Source of the DNA: a virus | Lineage: Duplodnaviria; Heunggongvirae; Uroviricota; Caudoviricetes | Length of the DNA stretch: 51,169 bases | IMG/VR virus record: IMGVR_UViG_2526164628_000012 | Strand: one strand, 5' to 3' | Part shown: positions 1 to 35,076 of the stretch, piece by piece | Layout: each line of letters starts with the position of its first letter | How positions within the stretch are numbered: position 1 is the first letter of the stretch | Program-made: the position numbers and the translations under genes | The notes under the pieces: generated by a model | The model's input: the letters and a program-made list of their open reading frames with translations, nothing else | The model's database searches: none | Told to the model about the DNA's origin: nothing

Positions 1-1131
1 TCAAATGACCAGTTTTTTCCATTCCTTACCGCGTGCGTCGTTGTAAATATCGGTCATTTTTTGATTCGAATGGCCTAGCAAAATTTTGGTATCAACCCCC
101 TGCTCTCTGAACAATCGCTCTGATAAAGATCTCTGCTCATGGAAAGAGGGTGGGGTGCCATTAGCACGCCAGTTGTAATCCACAGAATCCCGGGCTTTTT
201 TAAATGCAACGGTTAATGTTGCTGGCTTAACCATCCCGCCGCGCTTAGCTGTCCCTTTCGCGTGATGGTGGTGCAATAGCCACGGACTAAGAACGCAATC
301 GCGGCAGGATGACACTACATCATCCAGGGTGAGATTTAATTTATCGCAACGCAGAGCCAGAGGGATGGCAATCCGGGTTCCTGTTTTTTGCTGTTCGACA
401 TGAAGATAACCATCCCGGATATCCGAAAATTGCATTTTGCAAATATCTGAAAGGCGCTGGCCTGTCATCAGTGCCAGCAGCATACCGCGCTGTAAAAAGT
501 AACCATCCTTTTCCGCTGCGTTATAAATCATCATCCACTCATCAAAAGTCAGTCGCTGTCTTGATATCCGCACCTGCGGTTTTTTTGCCGATTCTGCAGG
601 GTTAAAGCCTGGCGGGACATCGCCCGTTTGCTGAGCTTCCCGGAAAACATCGATCAGTACCTTCCTGAAAATTTGTCCCATTCTGTTATGTCCTCTGGCC
701 TTGTACTCTTCCAGTACTGATACCACATCTTTTACGGTTATGGCATCTAACGGTCTGGTGCCAAAACGTTCATCAAATACCCTGAGAGGGGCCGCTTTCT
801 GTTTCAGCGTGTTGAGTTTGATCTCGCCGTTTTCATATCTTTCCTGTTGAATTTTTCTGTAATTATTCAGAAAAATGGTAACGGTTGATGAACCGCCGGT
901 ATCACTAATAATTTTCTCCTGCAGACTGAGCATTTGTTCCATTTGCTGCCGGGCAAGACGGCTGTTCGCTTCTGCTGCAATAGTTTCTGCCAGTTTCTGG
1001 TCAATACTGCCGAGACCGTGATTTTTGCCTGTTATGGGATGCCTGTAACGCCAGTAAACTTTGTTATTTCTTTTGTCAAAATACGGAGATAATCCCGGAA
1101 CATTGGTTTTATATTTTCGCGGGCGCGCCAT
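1..1131 (-). CDS. int: Phage integrase (tyrosine recombinase), 376 aa
   Basis: Full ORF with stop at 1-3; lambdoid-integrase-like N-terminus (MARPRKYKT...); sits at prophage end with xis overlapping its 5' end. Confidence 0.85.
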   Translation of the reverse strand: MARPRKYKTNVPGLSPYFDKRNNKVYWRYRHPITGKNHGLGSIDQKLAETIAAEANSRLARQQMEQMLSLQEKIISDTGGSSTVTIFLNNYRKIQQERYENGEIKLNTLKQKAAPLRVFDERFGTRPLDAITVKDVVSVLEEYKARGHNRMGQIFRKVLIDVFREAQQTGDVPPGFNPAESAKKPQVRISRQRLTFDEWMMIYNAAEKDGYFLQRGMLLALMTGQRLSDICKMQFSDIRDGYLHVEQQKTGTRIAIPLALRCDKLNLTLDDVVSSCRDCVLSPWLLHHHHAKGTAKRGGMVKPATLTVAFKKARDSVDYNWRANGTPPSFHEQRSLSERLFREQGVDTKILLGHSNQKMTDIYNDARGKEWKKLVI

Positions 1132-1421: not shown

Positions 1422-3893
1422 TTAAAAATCAGCCTGATTCGGGATCAGTTTTTGCCAGATAACTGAAACGTATTTTGCCTGGTAACGGGCGTCATCAAGT
1501 GCATTATGGCGCTCACCTTCGAATGGAATAGCCGTTCTGGCATCGAAGTCTATGGCTTTCCCCAGCTCAACGATTGTGCGTACATCGCGATCGTTGTAGT
1601 AACGCCACGGGCAGGGGATCCCCTGCCGTTCGTATGAACGGCGCAAAATCGTGTTGTCGAAGTTGGCTCCATTTCCCCAGACCTGAACAAAAAATTCACC
1701 GGAGTTTTCGTCGATAAATTCCCGCAATTGTAACAGTGCATCATCTAACGGGATTTCATCGGTCATAATGGCAGACTGCGCTTCACGTGATTGCTTCAGC
1801 CACCTTTTAATGACGTCACGATCAATGACTCCGCCAGCAGTTTCCAGATCGATAGTCTTACTAAATTCCGGTCCCATATCTCCGGTTTGCGGATCGAAAA
1901 ATATTGCACCTATTGAGATAATCGGGGCATCAGGATTTTTTCCCATGGTTTCAAGGTCGATCATTAGATGGTCACACGTCCTGCTGGTGGATGTGATAAC
2001 GTGATGACCGTTCATCGCAATTAAGGGATCTGCCGTCTCGCCAGTTTCACTATCGCTGGCGTGATCCTGAGCGCTACCAGCATTCTCCTTGTGTGGATGT
2101 TCAGCGCCTTCGATTTCCTTCGGATCATTTTCCTGAACTTCAACCTGATTCTCTTCATCGAATGTTTCCTGGTATGTTGCGTCACCCATCACCGCGCCAC
2201 AATCAGGGCAGTTGCCGCCACCGCTTTGACCGCAGGCGGTGCAGACTTTTTCCGGTTCCTGTTGCGCTACTGGCTCAGGTTGTTTCGTTTCTGGCTCGTT
2301 TTGTTGCGTATTTGGGCTGTTTTGTTCCGCTTTCTGGTCGTTCTGTTCCGATTCTTGCTGGTTCTGGTTTACAGAATCGCGGGTTTCAATCCCCTTTACC
2401 CATTTCGGATCATTCGGGTCGCTAATCCCTGCAACAAATTCTCCGCGAGAGGCAGCAAGCAACTTATCGGCGTCAGGCTGGCTGATATTGGCTGCCTGCA
2501 TAATTTTGTTTACTTCGTCAGCGGTAACTTTTACCGGCTCTGGTTGTGCGGTCGTGTCAGATGCACCAGTATTTTGTTGTGAACCTGAGTACGTGCCGTT
2601 TTTACGTGCGAAGTATTCCTCTTTTGTGATTTCCGTAGCTCCCAGGGCTAGTGCTTTTTCCAGACCAGAAAGTTTGTTTGCGCGACCGTATTTTTCGCCA
2701 TCCTTGTCGGTGAAGAGGAAGTAGAACGGCCCCTCACGCTCTACAGATGGTTCGACTTCCACTTTGCATTCGGTTTTTTCGTTGCCCGGAATTGCCGTTT
2801 CCACTGCATCAGTTTCTGGTACTGGCGACGAGAGAGTATCAGTTGCGCTCTGATTTCTTCCTTCATCTTCAAACACGCCCTTTGTAGTCAGGTATTCAGT
2901 AATGTATTTGTTCAGTGCCACAGGGTCTTTGTGAATGTCGATCGGACGTTCACGGACAAGGCCAAAAATAGTCTGGCGGTCGTAGCGAAGGGCATCAGGC
3001 TGTTTGCGCATTGATGCCGAGATACGCTTCCAGTCTTCGCGGTCGTTGTCGATAACTTCATTTTTTGCCCAGCGATGGATGCTGCCGTCAATGTTTCCGG
3101 CATCCACATCACCAGGCCAGAGAGCGTAGGCCAGTTCGTCATCCAGTGTTTTCCATGTCTGCTTGTATTCGCGATGAATGGCAGCAATGACCGGGCTGAT
3201 TTTTCCTGTTGAATTTTCACTGTGCTGTTGATTGGTTCTGGCGCGGGCGAGATCAACAACAGACGTGTATTTTCCGGTTTCCTTGCGTTCACCTTCGCGA
3301 CGTTTTTTCCAGATGCGCATCTCTGCCTGAATTTCGGGCCATTTGGCACCAGGCTTACATTTATGCTTAACCCACCCGATGGCATGCAGCTTAAGCTCCG
3401 GATACATGGCGTTAACTTCTGGCATTTTCATCAACGCTTCAACGATATGTCCGTCGAATGTTGCCATGTCTTCCTGCAACAATTCCTGTGCGCTAATAAC
3501 CATATCAACGGTGATGTTTTCACATGTGTCGAACTTAACCATGACAGCGTTCTGTACTTCAGGGGCCAGCTTGTCAAAAGTGACGTTCATCGGATCGGAT
3601 TCAGTCTCAACCGGGACAAAGGAAGCAGACTCCTCATCCCAGCGGTTTTCCTGCATATATTCAGCATCCCAGGAATCGAGGGCAGGGCGGGGTATACCGG
3701 GTTTATCCTCGCAGACAAGAAATTTATAAGCGCAGTCCTGAGCAGCCGGATAATGTTCCAGGAATTGCCAGTGAAATTTTGCGCGGGCGCGACGTTCATC
3801 ACCGGCTTCAATGGCAGTGGCTACAGCGACGGCACCTTCTTCCTTTATTGCCTGTTCGTCCGGAATGGCGGCGCAAATAAAGACTTTACTCAT
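1422..3893 (-). CDS. Exodeoxyribonuclease VIII-like protein, 823 aa, C-terminal DnaQ/DEDDh-type exonuclease domain
   Basis: Long ORF; C-terminal region (MIDLETMG...HNALDDARY) looks like a DEDD 3'-5' exonuclease; central Gln-rich low-complexity stretch and CxxC...CxxC motif; position between xis and dicB as in Qin/Rac-type prophages. Confidence 0.7.
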   Translation of the reverse strand: MSKVFICAAIPDEQAIKEEGAVAVATAIEAGDERRARAKFHWQFLEHYPAAQDCAYKFLVCEDKPGIPRPALDSWDAEYMQENRWDEESASFVPVETESDPMNVTFDKLAPEVQNAVMVKFDTCENITVDMVISAQELLQEDMATFDGHIVEALMKMPEVNAMYPELKLHAIGWVKHKCKPGAKWPEIQAEMRIWKKRREGERKETGKYTSVVDLARARTNQQHSENSTGKISPVIAAIHREYKQTWKTLDDELAYALWPGDVDAGNIDGSIHRWAKNEVIDNDREDWKRISASMRKQPDALRYDRQTIFGLVRERPIDIHKDPVALNKYITEYLTTKGVFEDEGRNQSATDTLSSPVPETDAVETAIPGNEKTECKVEVEPSVEREGPFYFLFTDKDGEKYGRANKLSGLEKALALGATEITKEEYFARKNGTYSGSQQNTGASDTTAQPEPVKVTADEVNKIMQAANISQPDADKLLAASRGEFVAGISDPNDPKWVKGIETRDSVNQNQQESEQNDQKAEQNSPNTQQNEPETKQPEPVAQQEPEKVCTACGQSGGGNCPDCGAVMGDATYQETFDEENQVEVQENDPKEIEGAEHPHKENAGSAQDHASDSETGETADPLIAMNGHHVITSTSRTCDHLMIDLETMGKNPDAPIISIGAIFFDPQTGDMGPEFSKTIDLETAGGVIDRDVIKRWLKQSREAQSAIMTDEIPLDDALLQLREFIDENSGEFFVQVWGNGANFDNTILRRSYERQGIPCPWRYYNDRDVRTIVELGKAIDFDARTAIPFEGERHNALDDARYQAKYVSVIWQKLIPNQADF

Positions 3894-3985
3894 TTTGTTT
3901 TACCTCATTACAGATTTAAGGGTGAACAAATCCCTGCCATTGCTGGCATATAAGAATGAAACCGGATATTTATTACGGAACTGTT

Positions 3986-4177
3986 TTAAAGACCTGCCGG
4001 GATTTCGTTATTATCCTGGTGAATAACTTTATCGACCGGGTAACAGTTACCGGGAATTTTCTGTTCGGTTGCTGCAGTCACACACTCCTGCATTGTCCTG
4101 TGAACACTGACTGCAATATCAACTGGCTCTCCGGAAACAAGAAAAACTGTCAGAACAAGTGCAAATGCTGTATTCAT
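3986..4177 (-). CDS. ydfD: YdfD-like small membrane (lysis) protein, 63 aa
   Basis: ATG overlaps dicB stop (ATGA); N-terminal hydrophobic segment MNTAFALVLTVFLVSG; matches recalled Qin YdfD size and sequence. Confidence 0.55.
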   Translation of the reverse strand: MNTAFALVLTVFLVSGEPVDIAVSVHRTMQECVTAATEQKIPGNCYPVDKVIHQDNNEIPAGL

Positions 4178-4362
4178 TGCCAGCATCCTTTTTGTATCGG
4201 ACGTAAACGGGCCAGCATTGAAAGAATGCATATTTTATTTAATAGCTCCCGTTCGTGTTTTCTCTTGTTAATGGCATCTTCAGTAAATACAGGGTTACTG
4301 ATAGTGACACCAATTTCAAAACAACCTTCAGACGTATTAACGTTTGGTAATAACGTTTCCAT
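4174..4362 (-). CDS. dicB: Cell-division inhibitor DicB, 62 aa
   Basis: Internal Met of the 97-aa track ORF gives METLLPNVNTSEGCFEIGVTISNPVFTEDAINKRK..., near-identical to recalled DicB; immediately downstream of DicF. Confidence 0.85.
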   Translation of the reverse strand: METLLPNVNTSEGCFEIGVTISNPVFTEDAINKRKHERELLNKICILSMLARLRPIQKGCWQ

Positions 4363-4536: not shown

Positions 4537-4589
4537 GGGCGGCAGAGCAGTCACGGAGTAAAACTGATACCGCCAAACGTCACCAGAAA
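4537..4589 (-). ncRNA. dicF: DicF small regulatory RNA (ftsZ-targeting)
   Basis: Reverse complement reads TTTCTGGTGACGTTTGGCGGTATCAGTTTTACTCCGTGACTGCTCTGCCGCCC followed by a T-run, matching recalled DicF; located directly upstream of dicB. Confidence 0.85.
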
Positions 4590-5200: not shown

Positions 5201-5573
5201 TTTTAATTGTTGTTTTGAAATAATCACTGCTTTCACATTTGAGTGATTTCATGGCAATCCAAATGCGGGCCTCTGTGCCTGCATTTGGTTCCAGTTGCTG
5301 TAGACGTTTTGCGTCTTCCAAAAGTAAGGCGATAATGTGTTTCAGCTTCTCATCATTTGCTTGATTCTTGTTTTCAGGCGAATTCTGTCCGCCGAATAGG
5401 CGCTTCTCTTCATACAGACCTATAAAGGCACGACGCACGTTACCGGATATAGTATCGATGGTTTCTTTTTCTACGGTACTCAGGTCAAGAGTCGCCAGTT
5501 GAGAGCGAACCACATTCGATGCCATTTCCTGGAATGGTACTGGTAAATCTTTAAATTCCATCGTCAACCTCAT
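5160..5573 (-). CDS. Hypothetical protein, 133-137 aa
   Basis: Start ATG overlaps ydfA-like stop (TGATG coupling); alternative start 5561 with GAGG RBS; no recognisable motifs. Confidence 0.5.
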   Translation of the reverse strand: MRLTMEFKDLPVPFQEMASNVVRSQLATLDLSTVEKETIDTISGNVRRAFIGLYEEKRLFGGQNSPENKNQANDEKLKHIIALLLEDAKRLQQLEPNAGTEARIWIAMKSLKCESSDYFKTTIKTTQLSGELLKKLP

Positions 5574-5725
5574 CAGTCAGTGTTTCTGGTTAACCAGCGA
5601 CGCGCGCCAGCTTCAGTTTTAAACGTTTTGCTTCTGGTATACGTCATCGCGGTAAACGTGCCGTCCTGGTTGGGGAACACGCCACATACCAGAGATTCGT
5701 TGTTGCCAAGATTGAGCATATCCAT
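5573..5725 (-). CDS. ydfA: YdfA-like small protein, 50 aa
   Basis: Hand translation of minus strand: MDMLNLGNNESLVCGVFPNQDGTFTAMTYTRSKTFKTEAGARRWLTRNTD; GAGG RBS 5 nt upstream; not in supplied ORF track (below 60 aa); resembles recalled Qin YdfA. Confidence 0.5.
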   Translation of the reverse strand: MDMLNLGNNESLVCGVFPNQDGTFTAMTYTRSKTFKTEAGARRWLTRNTD

Positions 5726-5797
5726 GTTGACCTCATTTCCCCTTAACGCCGGGGTAGCGGAACAAAAGTAAGCGGCTCGTCAGAACCGTATTGATAT

Positions 5798-7369
5798 TTA
5801 CTGAGAGCTCAGATCAACTTTCCAGGGCAACAGATCGCGTACCCGGTTTGCCGGCCAGTCCTGGATATGTTCAATGACGTAGCGCAGCCACTTTTCTGGC
5901 TCCACATTGTTCAGACGGCATGTGCCGATCAGCGAGTACAACACCGCCGCATGTTCACCACCGCTGTCGGAACCCGCGAACATCCAGTTTTTCCGGCCTA
6001 CGGCCACTCCCCGTAAGGCGTTCTCTGCGATGTTGTTGTCGATTTCCACCCAGCCATTACTGCAGTACACGTTCAGTGCATCCCACTGTTTCAGCAGGTA
6101 TGCGAACGCTTTTGCCGTATCTGAGTGACGCGACAGTGTTTTCATCTGTTGCTGTATCCAGTCATACAGTGACTGCATCAGTGGCGCGGCTCTGGTTTTT
6201 CTTGCCGCCAGACGCTGTTCTGCTGAACAGCCCCGGACCTCTGCCTCGATGGCATACAGTTCACCGATACGCTGCAGGGCTTCCGTGGTGATGTCGGTGG
6301 GCGCTCTTGCATGCACATCGTGGATTTTTCTCCGGGCATGAGCCATACACGCGGCTTCCGTTATTCTGCCGGATTCGTATAACGCCCGGTAACCACCGTA
6401 AGCATCGGCCTGAAGCACACCGCTGTAACCGGCCAGGTGATTTTGTGGATGGATACCTTTCCGGTCCGGACTGTACGCGAACCAGACCGCCGGGGGCATC
6501 TGTGAACCGGCGTTACGGTCATCACGGACGTAGACCCACAGCCGGGCTGTCCGGGTTTTACCGCTGCCCGGCTCCTGGACCGGGACGGGGATATCATCAG
6601 CATGGACTTTACCGGGCATCAGCACATACTGGCGCAGGACGTCATACAGCGGCTCCAGTAGTTCAGCAACGGCACCTGTCCAGCGCCCCAGTGTGGCACG
6701 GCTCAGCTCCACACCCTGACGGCGGTATATCTCTGACTGGCGGTATAACGGCAGATGGTCTGCATATTTTCCGGTGACGACATGGGCCAGGAGCCCCGCT
6801 CCGGCATAACTGCGTGCAATGGGTTTTGAAGGTACTGGTGCCTGCACGATATGGTCGCACCGACAACAGGCCAGTTTCGGACGTTGTGTTTCGATAACCT
6901 TAAAGGCGCTGCTGATAAGCTCCAGTTGCTCTGACACATCACATCCCAGAGAACTGAGTTCACCACCACAGGCAGGACAGCATTCCTCTTCCGGCCGGAT
7001 AACCCGGGTTTCACGGGGAAGTGAGGCCGGTAACGGTTTACGGGCTGAAGACTGGCGCAGGGCGGATGGCAGTACCGGGTCATATTGCTCACCCAGCGTT
7101 TCCGCCATTTCTTCCTGAAGTGCGCTGATTCGCTCCTGTGCTTCCTGTATCTGCCGTTCGGTTTTTGCACGAAGTTTTTCTGAGCTTTTACCGAACTGCA
7201 TACGTTGCAGTTTCGCAACCAGCGCCTTCAGCCGGTTGATTTCGGAAGCATAAGCCGCCACCCGCTGTGAGAGCAGGCGGTTGTATTCAGCCATCTGGCG
7301 TATGGTGTCCTGTTGCGTCTGCAACAGTGCCCGCAGGCGGGCGTTCTCATGAGCAAGTGAGGTGTCCAT
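5798..7369 (-). CDS. IS66-family transposase (orf3/TnpC), 523 aa
   Basis: Characteristic IS66 transposase length and arrangement; identical protein in second copy. Confidence 0.85.
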
Positions 7370-7388
7370 ATCCTCACTTTACAACGGG

Positions 7389-7736
7389 TTATATGCGGAT
7401 TCCAGCGCGTTCCGTTCGTTTCGGGTGCTTCCAGTTGATACCTTCAAGAAGCATGGATAACTGAGCCGGAGTAAGGTGCACCTTGCCGTCACGGGTGACT
7501 GGCCAGACGAAGCGGCCCCGCTCCAGGCGTTTGGTGAAGAGGCACAGTCCGTCACTGTCAGCCCACAACACTTTTATCTGGTCACCCCGGCGTCCGCGGA
7601 AGATGAACAGGTGTCCGGAGAACGGGTCATCCTTCAGGACGTTCTGAACTTTTGATGCCAGGCCGTTAAAGCCATTTCGCATATCGGTGATACCTGCAAC
7701 CAGCCAGATACGCGAACCTGCAGGGAGAGATATCAT
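7389..7736 (-). CDS. IS66-family Orf2 (TnpB), 115 aa
   Basis: Middle ORF of IS66 three-gene arrangement. Confidence 0.8.
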   Translation of the reverse strand: MISLPAGSRIWLVAGITDMRNGFNGLASKVQNVLKDDPFSGHLFIFRGRRGDQIKVLWADSDGLCLFTKRLERGRFVWPVTRDGKVHLTPAQLSMLLEGINWKHPKRTERAGIRI

Positions 7737-8413
7737 CAGTGGCTGCTCCCTTTTATTTCGCGGATAAGTGTCTGTAATAACGCCGGCGTCAGTTTACCTT
7801 TAAGCCTGAGAGTTCCGGCCGGCAGAACCAGCTCACAACACAGACTGTCGGACGGTGTATTTATCTGCTCTGGTTCCTGTGCGGGGGCCGGGATTTTATT
7901 ATCCGGCTCCGGCGTTAACGTCACGGGAAGCAGTGCCGGCATATTTTTTCCGGAAGGCAGCAGGCCACCTTTCCGGTATTGATGGCGCCAGTTGAAGAGC
8001 AGGTTATCGTTGATTCCGTTTTCCCGGGCGATCTGCGCCACACAGGCTCCGGGCTGCAGTGACTGCTCCACTAAGGCGATTTTAAACTCATAAGGGAAGT
8101 TGGGCCGCCGGGGACGTTTTTTTACCACGGGGGCTTCGGATATAACGGTGCTTTCAGGACGTACGACTGGTACCGTGGAAAATTGTCCGTAAAGGCAGGC
8201 ATCAAGTTCCTGCTCCGACATGCCTGCGGGCAAAGGCCACGAAAGGCCAGCTCTCCGAAAGCGCACGAACATACTACAAACTGTTGATTTTGGTACACCC
8301 AGGCGACGCCCGGCCACAACCCGGGGTAAATGTTCTTCAAAGTGAAGACGTAAAGCTTCAGTGATCCAGGTCCGGTGTTTCATACGATAGTGTCCATTAA
8401 AAATGATGGACAT
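7736..8413 (-). CDS. IS66-family Orf1 (TnpA), 225 aa
   Basis: First ORF of IS66 arrangement; overlaps orf2 start. Confidence 0.8.
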   Translation of the reverse strand: MSIIFNGHYRMKHRTWITEALRLHFEEHLPRVVAGRRLGVPKSTVCSMFVRFRRAGLSWPLPAGMSEQELDACLYGQFSTVPVVRPESTVISEAPVVKKRPRRPNFPYEFKIALVEQSLQPGACVAQIARENGINDNLLFNWRHQYRKGGLLPSGKNMPALLPVTLTPEPDNKIPAPAQEPEQINTPSDSLCCELVLPAGTLRLKGKLTPALLQTLIREIKGSSH

Positions 8414-8618
8414 TATTTTTGTAGAGCCGGAGGAAACAGACCAGACGGTTTAAATGAGCCGGTTACGAACAAAAACCTGCTGCATAGTTATTAAAGTTGA
8501 ACCCTGCCGTCATGTTCTTACGCCTCGGGCTGGCTACTTAACCCCTGACCACTGCCTGGTAACTCGAAGTATTGCCCTGCATTCTGTGGGGCGGGGGGGG
8601 TTGGTATGAAAAGAAGGA

Positions 8619-8655
8619 TACCCATAGGTATTTAAAAAGTAAATACCCATGGGTA
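8619..8655. promoter_or_regulatory. Two palindromic operator-like sites TACCCATAGGTA and TACCCATGGGTA
   Basis: Two 12-bp TACC-N4-GGTA palindromes about 25 bp apart, downstream of the repressor gene and upstream (before IS insertion) of ydfA-DicF-dicB. Confidence 0.4.
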
Positions 8656-8697
8656 AATTTTTGCGGTGTCTTAACTGGTGACTAGTTGTTTGGTGAG

Positions 8698-9116
8698 CTA
8701 TGATGCGTTTTGTGCTTTCTTTTTACGGATTTCTTCGTAGATCATATTGTAATACTGTTTTTTCTCTTCAAGAGTTTTTAATAATTTATCCGCTTCACTT
8801 TCTGGCAGTTCGTCTAAGAGATCTAAAAAAATACGTTGTCGTGGCGTTAGAACCCTTGTTTCATAACTGGAGGCTGTGTTCGTTGATGATGAAACGATAC
8901 CATCCATCCATCCCCGGGGTAACCCAAAGGACTCTTCGATAATCTCCACCATATCATCAGCGATCCGTTTTTTCCCTTTTTCCCCTCTGGGTACAACATT
9001 CTTGATACATAAGAAGGCTCGCGCCCGATCTTTCTGGCCACGTTAACCGCTTTACCATCGCATTTCTCATCACGAATTTTGATGAGTTGCTGTCGTCTAA
9101 ATTCATATTTGTCCAT
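8698..9116 (-). pseudogene. DicA/CI-like HTH repressor, frameshifted
   Basis: Two overlapping ORFs (8847-9116 and 8698-8952) form one repressor-like protein if one base is added to the A6 run in GGGAAAAAAC (plus-strand T6 near 8967-8972); C-terminus resembles DicA. Confidence 0.55.
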
Positions 9117-9136
9117 AGGTAAATAATAGATGCGAT

Positions 9137-9187
9137 TACCGCAAGGTAAACAACCTGTGGGTATTGACTTTTGTTTACCTGTGGGTA
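9137..9187. promoter_or_regulatory. Divergent promoter/operator region with three TACC-N4-GGTA-type sites
   Basis: TACCGCAAGGTA (9137-9148), AACCTGTGGGTA (9152-9163), TACCTGTGGGTA (9176-9187) between divergent repressor and cro-like genes. Confidence 0.45.
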
Positions 9188-9216
9188 TTCTTTGCTGTGT
9201 TTACTAAGGAGTAGCT

Positions 9217-9498
9217 ATGGAAGAATTAAGAATATTTCTCAATTCTCTTTCGTCAGATGAACAGCGTATGTTTGCATGCGAGTGTGGTACCAGCATCGGT
9301 TATCTAAGAAAGGCATTGAGTAAAGGTCAAGTGTTAGGGGCATCGTTATGTGTCCTTATTGAGCGAGCCAGTAATGGTGAAGTTACACGTCAGCAACTAA
9401 GGCCTTTTGATTGGATGAATATTTGGCCCGAGCTGGAAGATACCAAAACGTTAACACAACCACTTTCTAGGAGCTTGATTCATGAAAATCAAGCATGA
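9217..9498 (+). CDS. Cro/DicC/YdaS-like HTH regulator, 93 aa
   Basis: Divergent from repressor; motif pattern resembles DicC/YdaS family. Confidence 0.6.
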   Translation: MEELRIFLNSLSSDEQRMFACECGTSIGYLRKALSKGQVLGASLCVLIERASNGEVTRQQLRPFDWMNIWPELEDTKTLTQPLSRSLIHENQA

Positions 9499-9907
9499 AC
9501 ACATCCGCATGGCGATGAATGTCTGGGCGCATCCGGACGGCGAAAAAGTGCCGGCTGCGAAAATTACCAAAGCGTATTTCGAGCTGGGAATGACGTTCCC
9601 GGAACTGTATGACGACAGCCATCCGGAAGCCCTGGCCCGTAATACCCAGAAAATTTTCCGTTGGCTGGATAAAGACACCCCTGATGCTGTTGAAAAAATG
9701 CAGGCTCTGTTACCGGCGATCGAAAAGGCGATGCCGCCTTTGCTGGTGGCCCGTATGCGTAGCCACAGTTCTGAATATTACCGTGATATCGTCGAACGGA
9801 GGGATCGGCTGGTGAAGGATGTCGATGATTTTGTTGCGTCAGCGGTTGTTTTGTATGACCAGATGAATCGCGGCGGCCCGGCAGGGAATGCTGTGGTGAT
9901 GCACTAA
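9482..9907 (+). CDS. YdaT-like protein (CII-analogue position), 141 aa
   Basis: N-terminus MKIKHEHI and C-terminal VVMH resemble recalled Rac YdaT; follows the cro-like gene as in Rac. Confidence 0.55.
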   Translation: MKIKHEHIRMAMNVWAHPDGEKVPAAKITKAYFELGMTFPELYDDSHPEALARNTQKIFRWLDKDTPDAVEKMQALLPAIEKAMPPLLVARMRSHSSEYYRDIVERRDRLVKDVDDFVASAVVLYDQMNRGGPAGNAVVMH

Positions 9908-31970: not shown

Positions 31971-32162
31971 AACATACTGAATTCCGTGCAGCCGTACTGG
32001 ATGCACTGGAGAAGCATGACACCGGGGCGACGTTTTTTGATGGTCGCCCCGCTGTTTTTGATGAGGCGGATTTTCCGGCAGTTGCCGTTTATCTCACCGG
32101 CGCTGAATACACGGGCGAAGAGCTGGACAGCGGTAAGCGGCTCGTCAGAACCGTATTGATAT

Positions 32163-33734
32163 TTACTGAGAGCTCAGATCAACTTTCCAGGGCAACAGAT
32201 CGCGTACCCGGTTTGCCGGCCAGTCCTGGATATGTTCAATGACGTAGCGCAGCCACTTTTCTGGCTCCACATTGTTCAGACGGCATGTGCCGATCAGCGA
32301 GTACAACACCGCCGCATGTTCACCACCGCTGTCGGAACCCGCGAACATCCAGTTTTTCCGGCCTACGGCCACTCCCCGTAAGGCGTTCTCTGCGATGTTG
32401 TTGTCGATTTCCACCCAGCCATTACTGCAGTACACGTTCAGTGCATCCCACTGTTTCAGCAGGTATGCGAACGCTTTTGCCGTATCTGAGTGACGCGACA
32501 GTGTTTTCATCTGTTGCTGTATCCAGTCATACAGTGACTGCATCAGTGGCGCGGCTCGGGTTTTTCTTGCCGCCAGACGCTGTTCTGCTGAACAGCCCCG
32601 GACCTCTGCCTCGATGGCATACAGTTCACCGATACGCTGCAGGGCTTCCGTGGTGATGTCGGTGGGCGCTCTTGCATGCACATCGTGGATTTTTCTCCGG
32701 GCATGAGCCATACACGCGGCTTCCGTTATTCTGCCGGATTCGTATAACGCCCGGTAACCACCGTAAGCATCGGCCTGAAGCACACCGCTGTAACCGGCCA
32801 GGTGATTTTGTGGATGGATACCTTTCCGGTCCGGACTGTACGCGAACCAGACCGCCGGGGGCATCTGTGAACCGGCGTTACGGTCATCACGGACGTAGAC
32901 CCACAGCCGGGCTGTCCGGGTTTTACCGCTGCCCGGCTCCTGGACCGGGACGGGGATATCATCAGCATGGACTTTACCGGGCATCAGCACATACTGGCGC
33001 AGGACGTCATACAGCGGCTCCAGTAGTTCAGCAACGGCACCTGTCCAGCGCCCCAGTGTGGCACGGCTCAGCTCCACACCCTGACGGCGGTATATCTCTG
33101 ACTGGCGGTATAACGGCAGATGGTCTGCATATTTTCCGGTGACGACATGGGCCAGGAGCCCCGCTCCGGCATAACTGCGTGCAATGGGTTTTGAAGGTAC
33201 TGGTGCCTGCACGATATGGTCGCACCGACAACAGGCCAGTTTCGGACGTTGTGTTTCGATAACCTTAAAGGCGCTGCTGATAAGCTCCAGTTGCTCTGAC
33301 ACATCACATCCCAGAGAACTGAGTTCACCACCACAGGCAGGACAGCATTCCTCTTCCGGCCGGATAACCCGGGTTTCACGGGGAAGTGAGGCCGGTAACG
33401 GTTTACGGGCTGAAGACTGGCGCAGGGCGGATGGCAGTACCGGGTCATATTGCTCACCCAGCGTTTCCGCCATTTCTTCCTGAAGTGCGCTGATTCGCTC
33501 CTGTGCTTCCTGTATCTGCCGTTCGGTTTTTGCACGAAGTTTTTCTGAGCTTTTACCGAACTGCATACGTTGCAGTTTCGCAACCAGCGCCTTCAGCCGG
33601 TTGATTTCGGAAGCATAAGCCGCCACCCGCTGTGAGAGCAGGCGGTTGTATTCAGCCATCTGGCGTATGGTGTCCTGTTGCGTCTGCAACAGTGCCCGCA
33701 GGCGGGCGTTCTCATGAGCAAGTGAGGTGTCCAT
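32163..33734 (-). CDS. IS66-family transposase (orf3/TnpC), 523 aa
   Basis: Identical protein to copy 1. Confidence 0.85.
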
Positions 33735-33753
33735 ATCCTCACTTTACAACGGG

Positions 33754-34101
33754 TTATATGCGGATTCCAGCGCGTTCCGTTCGTTTCGGGTGCTTCCAGT
33801 TGATACCTTCAAGAAGCATGGATAACTGAGCCGGAGTAAGGTGCACCTTGCCGTCACGGGTGACTGGCCAGACGAAGCGGCCCCGCTCCAGGCGTTTGGT
33901 GAAGAGGCACAGTCCGTCACTGTCAGCCCACAACACTTTTATCTGGTCACCCCGGCGTCCGCGGAAGATGAACAGGTGTCCGGAGAACGGGTCATCCTTC
34001 AGGACGTTCTGAACTTTTGATGCCAGGCCGTTAAAGCCATTTCGCATATCGGTGATACCTGCAACCAGCCAGATACGCGAACCTGCAGGGAGAGATATCA
34101 T
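33754..34101 (-). CDS. IS66-family Orf2 (TnpB), 115 aa
   Basis: Identical to copy 1. Confidence 0.8.
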   Translation of the reverse strand: MISLPAGSRIWLVAGITDMRNGFNGLASKVQNVLKDDPFSGHLFIFRGRRGDQIKVLWADSDGLCLFTKRLERGRFVWPVTRDGKVHLTPAQLSMLLEGINWKHPKRTERAGIRI

Positions 34102-34778
34102 CAGTGGCTGCTCCCTTTTATTTCGCGGATAAGTGTCTGTAATAACGCCGGCGTCAGTTTACCTTTAAGCCTGAGAGTTCCGGCCGGCAGAACCAGCTCA
34201 CAACACAGACTGTCGGACGGTGTATTTATCTGCTCTGGTTCCTGTGCGGGGGCCGGGATTTTATTATCCGGCTCCGGCGTTAACGTCACGGGAAGCAGTG
34301 CCGGCATATTTTTTCCGGAAGGCAGCAGGCCACCTTTCCGGTATTGATGGCGCCAGTTGAAGAGCAGGTTATCGTTGATTCCGTTTTCCCGGGCGATCTG
34401 CGCCACACAGGCTCCGGGCTGCAGTGACTGCTCCACTAAGGCGATTTTAAACTCATAAGGGAAGTTGGGCCGCCGGGGACGTTTTTTTACCACGGGGGCT
34501 TCGGATATAACGGTGCTTTCAGGACGTACGACTGGTACCGTGGAAAATTGTCCGTAAAGGCAGGCATCAAGTTCCTGCTCCGACATGCCTGCGGGCAAAG
34601 GCCACGAAAGGCCAGCTCTCCGAAAGCGCACGAACATACTACAAACTGTTGATTTTGGTACACCCAGGCGACGCCCGGCCACAACCCGGGGTAAATGTTC
34701 TTCAAAGTGAAGACGTAAAGCTTCAGTGATCCAGGTCCGGTGTTTCATACGATAGTGTCCATTAAAAATGATGGACAT
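34101..34778 (-). CDS. IS66-family Orf1 (TnpA), 225 aa
   Basis: Identical to copy 1. Confidence 0.8.
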   Translation of the reverse strand: MSIIFNGHYRMKHRTWITEALRLHFEEHLPRVVAGRRLGVPKSTVCSMFVRFRRAGLSWPLPAGMSEQELDACLYGQFSTVPVVRPESTVISEAPVVKKRPRRPNFPYEFKIALVEQSLQPGACVAQIARENGINDNLLFNWRHQYRKGGLLPSGKNMPALLPVTLTPEPDNKIPAPAQEPEQINTPSDSLCCELVLPAGTLRLKGKLTPALLQTLIREIKGSSH

Positions 34779-35076
34779 TATTTTTGTAGAGCCGGAGGAA
34801 ACAGACCAGACGGTTTAAATGAGCCGGTTACGGACAGCGATACCTGGCAGGCGGAGCTGCATATCGAAGTTTTCCTGCCTGCTCAGGTGCCGGATTCAGA
34901 GCTGGATGCGTGGATGGAGTCCCGGATTTATCCGGTGATGAGCGATATCCCGGCACTGTCAGATTTGATCACCAGTATGGTGGCCAGCGGCTATGACTAC
35001 CGGCGCGACGATGATGCGGGCCTGTGGAGTTCAGCCGATCTGACTTATGTCATTACCTATGAAATGTGAGGACGCT

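Follow-up and report, generated by a model that had tools for sequence, protein, structure and literature searches.

Candidate operators of a lambda-type immunity switch in a Rac-like prophage: a TACC-N4-GGTA code that recurs in related loci

The window, by which we mean the whole stretch of 51,169 bp analysed here, is a Rac-like lambdoid prophage. Its leftward arm carries an operon headed by a DUF1391 gene, its rightward arm opens with a cro-like gene followed by ydaT, and the features discussed below are collected in Table 1. The cro-like protein gave a weak Pfam match to YdaS_toxin, belongs to PHROG 35 and has PDB relatives named 'Cro' at E = 1e-10. At the end of its gene, overlapping the ATG of ydaT, TTGATTCATGAAAATCAA at 9475-9492 forms a perfect TTGATT-N6-AATCAA repeat. 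An earlier reading of the locus, made from the letters alone and hereafter called the sequence-only reading, had spoken of a 'dicB side' to the left of the repressor gene. This naming proved apt, both the DicF sRNA and the DicB ORF being found in the leftward operon. An IS66-family element sits between DUF1391 and the left-hand sites with their predicted promoter, PL; it is bounded by an 8-bp target duplication, GAACAAAA, at 5760-5767 and 8467-8474, and the arrangement in TW10590 is identical.

Table 1. Features of the immunity region and of the two arms (operators and promoters are predicted).
Feature	Position	Strand	Details
Integrase	1-1131	-	Leftward arm
Exonuclease, 823 aa		-	Leftward arm
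DicB ORF	~4174-4362	-	Leftward operon
DicF sRNA	4537-4588	-	Rfam, 76.7 bits
137-aa ORF		-	Leftward arm
DUF1391 gene	5573-5725	-	First gene of leftward operon
IS66-family element (ISCro1-like)	5768..8466	-	ORFs, junction alignments, TW10590 annotation
Predicted leftward early promoter PL	8615..8643	-	-35 TTTACT 8643..8638, 17-nt spacer, -10 TATCCT 8620..8615; read from sequence
Candidate operator OL1	8619..8630	.	TACCCATAGGTA; exact match; over spacer and first two bases of predicted PL -10
Candidate operator OL2	8644..8655	.	TACCCATGGGTA; exact match, perfect 12-bp palindrome; adjoins predicted PL -35; 25 bp from OL1
Repressor gene	8698..9116	-	Frameshifted, split into two ORFs; intact form 139 aa
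Predicted promoter PRM	9123..9150	-	-35 TTTACC 9150..9145, 16-nt spacer, -10 TATTAT 9128..9123; promoter scan
Candidate operator OR3	9137..9148	.	TACCGCAAGGTA; exact match; overlaps predicted PRM -35
Candidate operator OR2	9152..9163	.	AACCTGTGGGTA; one mismatch; between PR -35 and PRM -35
Predicted promoter PR	9164..9191	+	-35 TTGACT 9164-9169, 16-nt spacer, -10 TATTCT 9186-9191; promoter scan
Candidate operator OR1	9176..9187	.	TACCTGTGGGTA; exact match; over predicted PR spacer and first two bases of -10
cro-like gene (YdaS-like, 93 aa)	9217..9498	+	ORF; first gene of rightward operon
ydaT	9482-9907	+	Rightward arm, then replication genes, late genes

A pattern search of the window found four exact matches to TACCNNNNGGTA (TACC-N4-GGTA), starting at 8619, 8644, 9137 and 9176. 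The mean number expected from dinucleotide-preserving shuffles was 0.25, and none of 100 shuffles reached four. Together with one further site that carries a single mismatch (9152-9163), these are the five TACC-N4-GGTA sites that the sequence-only reading had placed around the repressor, and they flank the frameshifted gene on both sides. Their extended consensus is tTTACC-yryr-GGTAAa. When one mismatch was allowed, the window contained 15 matches in total, against 9.0 +/- 2.9 expected, and the 10 scattered matches other than the five sites correspond to the background level of the whole window. Good copies were confined to 570 bp around the repressor gene, with none elsewhere in the 51 kb; by our own arithmetic from the shuffle rate, about 0.003 exact sites would be expected per 570 bp. 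The concern that the motif might be just as frequent elsewhere was not borne out: away from the repressor gene it occurs at chance level, and exact copies are found only near that gene.

The repressor gene is interrupted by the loss of one nucleotide from a homopolymer. Alignment with the intact 139-aa gene of E. coli O55:H7 RM12579 and TW10590 (protein WP_000362153.1) showed T6 at 8968-8973 in place of T7, that is, A7 shortened to A6 on the coding strand. The region of TW10590 is otherwise 99.9% identical to the window, with an intact repressor gene. The idea of a 'repaired' repressor put forward earlier was thus right, since the gene carries a 1-nt deletion relative to the intact genes of these two genomes. 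The frameshift could be a homopolymer sequencing error.

The intact repressor consists of an N-terminal helix-turn-helix (HTH) domain (residues 1-72) and a helical C-terminal domain. A Pfam search with the protein returned no family at E <= 0.1, sequence searches of the PDB with the repressor and with a profile of the domain gave nothing meaningful, and PHROG 5736 was its only family match; the fold search was informative and assigned a five-helix HTH fold to the N-terminal domain. Database searches showed that residues 1-72 are common, at 50-85% identity, to many repressors whose C-terminal part is either the same short helical one or a LexA/S24 peptidase domain. The window repressor (139 aa, helical C-terminus) lacks the S24 domain, PF00717 being present only in relatives that share its N-terminal domain. 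At least 80% of this 1.1-kb region is carried by more than 800 complete E. coli genomes. A scan of viral contigs retrieved only copies 100% identical to the query and is thus uninformative on divergence.

Three of the sites lie inside the 100-bp region 9117-9216 between the divergent repressor and cro genes. A promoter scan placed PR and PRM here, with hexamers that match only 4-5 of 6 positions; these overlap OR1 and OR3 and flank OR2, which directly adjoins the predicted PR -35 on its upstream side. Because the PRM -10 ends only 6 nt from the repressor ATG (9116) and no Shine-Dalgarno sequence is found, the repressor mRNA is probably leaderless and starts at that ATG. Measured from this predicted start, the centres of OR1, OR2 and OR3 lie at about -65.5, -41.5 and -26.5, OR1 and OR2 being 24 bp apart centre to centre. 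In lambda, too, three dyads lie between the divergent repressor and cro genes, and a second set is found at the leftward early promoter downstream of the repressor. OR1 and OR2 of lambda are located at about -66 and -42 from PRM, and CI bound at OR2 activates PRM in that geometry; the offsets of OR1 and OR2 in the window are similar. Leaderless repressor mRNAs have been reported for lambda cI and for paaR2 of CP-933P (PMC8630535).

The comparison was extended to 43 related loci with 38-82% identity in the N-terminal domain. These comprised phages mEp043 and CharmingMan and 41 more loci that a scan limited to one genome for each species retrieved from Enterobacterales, Aeromonas, Neisseria, Burkholderiales, Nitrosomonadales and Xanthomonadales; counts given out of 44 include the window as the 44th locus. 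The 43 loci (258 kb) contained 124 exact sites, against about 4 expected at uniform composition by our own arithmetic. Sixty-four of the 124 fell within a zone of 71 nt ahead of the repressor ATG, and almost all others formed downstream pairs. A site at about -73, the OR1 homologue, was present in 40 of 44 loci (exact in 37), one at -48/-47 (OR2 homologue) in 35, one at -33/-32 (OR3 homologue) in 38, and the downstream pair (OL homologue) in 32 of 44. The motif proposed from one prophage is therefore conserved in homologous immunity regions. The OR1-3-like array suggested by the sequence-only reading likewise holds up, in that the three sites overlap the predicted PR and PRM and their layout and offsets from the ATG recur in some 35-40 of the 43 relatives.

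When the upstream regions of 34 loci were stacked, they aligned gap-free between the ATG and -75. Conservation was restricted to the half-sites, the TTGA beside OR2 (PR -35), ATTTAC (PRM -35), the last T of each -10 and a TAnnAT-like PRM -10; the columns between these elements varied freely, and the distance from the PRM -10 to the ATG was kept. On sequence grounds, the stack is a clean phylogenetic footprint of the predicted operators and promoters. A candidate fourth site over the repressor ATG (9111-9122, TGTCCATAGGTA, two mismatches) was not kept in the stacked relatives and was dropped. In 27 of 35 loci the OR2 homologue had a single mismatch, mostly the same GGTT, and would so be a conserved weak site. 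The central four bases also differed between positions: they alternated as YRYR in 34 of 40 OR1 homologues and 30 of 35 OR2 homologues, and in only 6 of 38 OR3 homologues. Central bases that are not contacted by the protein tune the operator affinity of the 434 and P22 repressors, and by analogy we speculate that they might do so here.

Close parallels to the window in site layout came from mEp043 and CharmingMan, whose repressors share about 65% identity with the window's in the N-terminal domain and whose Cro proteins are homologous to the window's. In both phages the region between cI and cro contains three sites, whose starts are separated by 25 and 15 bp and which overlap promoters in the same way as in the window; a pair spaced 25-26 bp follows downstream of cI. 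This pair stands, in mEp043, directly upstream of gene N, which is where the PL/OL of a lambdoid phage belongs. The differences lie elsewhere: their CI proteins (about 225 aa) carry a LexA/S24 autocleavage domain (PF00717 in relatives) that the window repressor lacks, and their neighbouring genes are lambda-like (cII, N), whereas the window has ydaT and dicB instead. A literature search found no published operator analysis for either phage. Likewise, full-text searches of the literature open without subscription, made with the site strings and with variants of TACC-N4-GGTA, turned up no phage paper describing the motif.

Which protein reads these sites could be approached through loci in which parts of the cassette have been exchanged. 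Phage Tritos shares the window's repressor C-terminal domain and its YdaT (86% identity) and has another DNA-binding domain and another cro; no site was found in 6.3 kb of Tritos. Among motif-bearing proteins, the recognition-helix residues S35, Y36, R39, M40 and L41 were invariant. The recognition helix is altered in two Advenella loci (HPASISHMLY and HPATISHLLL) and one Nitrosomonas locus (DQSYVNRIFY), and all three lack the motif. The Advenella loci have instead N8-spaced repeats about -55 from the repressor ATG, TACCGC-N8-GCGGTA in one (L042) and ACCGT-N8-ACGGT in the other (L046), and it looks as though operator spacing had shifted there together with the recognition helix. These comparisons suggest that the motif follows the N-terminal DNA-binding domain of the repressor and neither its C-terminal domain nor the neighbouring genes. 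They agree with the earlier prediction that TACC-N4-GGTA is the repressor's binding motif: it tracks the N-terminal HTH across genera and is absent or changed where the domain or the recognition helix differs.

The YdaS-like Cro might nevertheless be the only protein to bind the sites, with the repressor taking no part. A divergent homologue of the cro-like gene is present in 35 of the 43 related loci, so the co-occurrence fits Cro equally well, and YdaS of CP-933P does bind the intergenic region (PMC8630535). Since repressor and Cro co-occur so widely, the two can be told apart only through four Klebsiella loci (L007, L010, L011 and L013), in which the repressor domain is present and a cro homologue is not; sites at -73 and -33 are still found there, as is a downstream pair in three of the four. 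That the motif changes when the recognition helix of the repressor changes points the same way, and sole use by Cro would be unusual, given that repressor and Cro share operators in lambda and CP-933P (PMC8630535). We consider binding by Cro alone very improbable; by analogy with the same two systems, the YdaS-like Cro probably uses the sites alongside the repressor. Still less credible is a reading in which the sites have nothing to do with the immunity repressor, being chance occurrences or else sites bound by a host factor or by YdaT/CII. AT-rich intergenic DNA commonly contains short palindromes, and YdaT too binds DNA in this region. Chance, however, sits badly with four exact sites where shuffles give 0.25, and the retention of the positions in hosts of two proteobacterial classes speaks against any single host factor. 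YdaT for its part recognises a different repeat, TTGATT-N6-AATCAA, and is absent from all motif-bearing related loci.

The four Klebsiella loci have an organisation of their own. At locus positions of about 2930-3970 they encode a solitary S24-type repressor without a divergent cro, preceded by two upstream sites only. The downstream pair lies some 930-960 nt away in three of them, with a single site in L010, and L011 has an ORF for a small membrane protein some 600 nt beyond. The four loci may represent SOS-controlled elements of a different kind in which this operator code is used again.

The two sites downstream of the repressor gene are arranged around PL in the way that OR1 and OR2 are arranged around PR. 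Read along the minus strand, OL2 (8655..8644) is followed by TTTACT, by the spacer with OL1 (8630..8619) and by TATCCT, which is the same build as PR. PL fell below the threshold of the promoter scan tool and so was not called. The layout, with OL2 before the -35 and OL1 over the -10, is nevertheless kept in relatives, including upstream of N in mEp043: the members of the downstream pair are spaced 24-26 bp apart, the distal one is followed by TTGAC and the promoter-proximal one by a TAnnnT -10. The second operator set that had been postulated for the dicB-side operon is thereby matched by a PR-like PL that faces DUF1391, DicF and DicB in the window. In the uninterrupted prophage of E. coli O55:H7 the same promoter faces DUF1391, dicB, recE, recT, xis and int.

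The left-hand pair (8619-8655) could alternatively be mainly an RNA element, an intrinsic terminator of the repressor transcript and not a pair of operators. A terminator scan does call a minus-strand hairpin made of both left palindromes, with 16 pairs and a U-rich tail (TCCTTCTTTT / UCCUUCUUUU). RNA folding gave a centroid of -22.2 kcal/mol for the hairpin, with a minimum free energy of -23.4 for the whole 116-nt segment and z = -4.4. The hairpin lies 43 nt past the repressor stop codon with no other terminator between, and its U-tract is upstream of the predicted PL start, which would place the hairpin in PRM transcripts only. Such a structure, however, comes free with any two similar palindromes, as these pair with each other. 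Across 31 related loci the hairpin is often broken up (-6 to -18 kcal/mol) and its tail is usually not T-rich, whereas the half-sites persist in the same relatives, as do the TTGAC that separates them and the TAnnnT that follows. Upstream of its pair, mEp043 has a distinct canonical terminator, and the same 12-mer also occurs in the right-hand region, where a terminator makes no sense. Because hairpin and tail degenerate in relatives in which half-sites and promoter elements persist, and because mEp043 has a terminator of its own, termination does not appear to be the conserved function of the left pair, and a primarily RNA-based role is unlikely. In this prophage nothing other than the hairpin separates the repressor transcript from PL, and here the OL pair may double as the terminator of the repressor transcript.

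The prophage CP-933P of E. coli O157:H7 has the same gene order as the window, with a leaderless short repressor, a divergent YdaS-type Cro and YdaT (PMC8630535, PMC9986795), and its operators are found at PR/PRM and at the PL analogue, as predicted for the window. These operators are 18-bp repeats with the consensus GTTTAGTAA (PMC8630535); we rejected this operator family for the sites of the window, as its consensus does not match TACC-N4-GGTA. A further difference is the paaA2-parE2 toxin-antitoxin pair that follows PaaR2 in CP-933P and is absent in the window. YdaT, on the other hand, is identical at 139 of 140 residues to the crystallised YdaT of CP-933P (PDB 8bt1), and the high-affinity YdaT operator (OM) defined by DNase footprinting in CP-933P, TTGATT-N6-AATCAA, is in the same place in the window, at the repeat described above. 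Because the operators differ from those of CP-933P while ydaT and OM are shared, the immunity region would be a mosaic in which an mEp043-type repressor-operator-cro cassette is joined to a CP-933P-type ydaT.

The five sites thus exist in clear excess and in one cluster, keep fixed places relative to promoter elements and co-occur with the DNA-binding domain in about 40 species. We put the probability that they are the operators (OR1-3 and OL1-2) of a lambda-type immunity switch at roughly 0.85. In the switch that we propose, the binding itself, the order of occupancy, the activation of PRM, the binding of Cro and the leaderless start are predictions. A dimer of the 139-aa repressor, which is inactive here through the frameshift, would bind each TACC-N4-GGTA dyad via its N-terminal HTH. 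From OR1, which covers the PR spacer and -10, and the weak OR2 upstream of the PR -35, it would shut off the cro/ydaT/replication operon. At OR2, about -41.5 from the predicted PRM start, it could also activate PRM as lambda CI does, and at high repressor levels occupation of OR3, over the PRM -35, would lead to negative autoregulation. From OL2 and OL1, which are placed likewise with respect to PL, the repressor would silence the DUF1391-dicF-dicB-exonuclease-integrase operon.

The architecture is that familiar from lambdoid operators; the operator code, seemingly uncharacterised, is shared by many bacterial genera. What strikes us most is the nucleotide-precise conservation of the cassette over two proteobacterial classes (Gamma- and Betaproteobacteria), combined with its fusion to alternative induction domains. 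A joint reading, which goes further and which we regard as tentative and on balance somewhat doubtful, is that the DNA-binding domain of the repressor, the operators, the leaderless PRM and cro form one portable cassette whose layout is fixed to the nucleotide (about -73, -48 and -33 from the ATG). Such a cassette would have spread over Enterobacterales, Aeromonas, Neisseria, Burkholderiales and Xanthomonadales, joined to induction domains that can replace one another, the S24 autoprotease or the short helical one. Since the recognition helix and the half-sites are nearly invariant, many of these prophages may form one very broad cross-immunity group, or what tells them apart may be no more than the central four bases, which are not contacted (YRYR in OR1 and OR2, non-YRYR in OR3); a possible second role of the OL pair of the window as terminator would be part of the same picture. 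Independently of this reading, the analysis yields a concrete operator code, tTTACC-N4-GGTAAa, for an immunity type that occurs in over 800 complete E. coli genomes as well as in the prophages of numerous further genera. The code can be used for the annotation of PR, PRM and PL, for predicting cross-immunity between prophages and for designing reporter and induction experiments. An immunity cassette can, on this evidence, hold its operator geometry constant while its induction-sensing domain is exchanged.

As to how a repressor without the S24 domain is induced, short repressors of the Gifsy GfoR/GtgR type are controlled by antirepressors (PMC3121763), and in this class the cognate antirepressor is usually under LexA control. 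The window repressor resembles the short repressors of Gifsy and of Salmonella phage SPC32H in its size (139 aa, in a class of up to about 150 aa) and in the lack of an S24 domain. No homologue of SPC32H Ant was found in the window, and no convincing LexA box stands beside a small gene there, CTGT-N8-ACAG occurring only inside the IS66 copies and the tape-measure gene. SPC32H Rep, studied with Ant (PDB 5d50, 5d4z), has 198 aa and a C-terminal domain unlike that of the window repressor, and its candidate half-sites are 5 bp apart, against 4 in the window. TACC-N5-GGTA occurs 11 times in SPC32H, where 0.24 are expected: at positions 13, 3176, 20014, 26961, 35973 and 36035 and in the rep flanks at 33529-33679 and 34391-34420. 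Some copies are remote from rep, such as those that precede int or lie between ant and the divergent tailspike gene, which suggests that SPC32H Rep controls several promoters.

In the prophage studied here, the sites may be unoccupied, unless the deletion in the repressor gene is a sequencing error or repressor is supplied in trans; with a real frameshift and no repressor in trans, PR and PL would lose their repression, and with them ydaS/ydaT and dicB. The IS66 insertion cuts PL off from the DUF1391-dicF-dicB-exonuclease-integrase operon, and because the IS genes run in the same direction as PL, the promoter would transcribe into the element. A frameshifted repressor together with an IS66 element between PL and dicF/dicB suggests a rewired control of the toxic left operon. 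A second IS66-family copy, which matches the first in its set of ORFs and in orientation, lies at about 32100-34830 in the late-gene region, and recombination between the two copies would delete about 26 kb.
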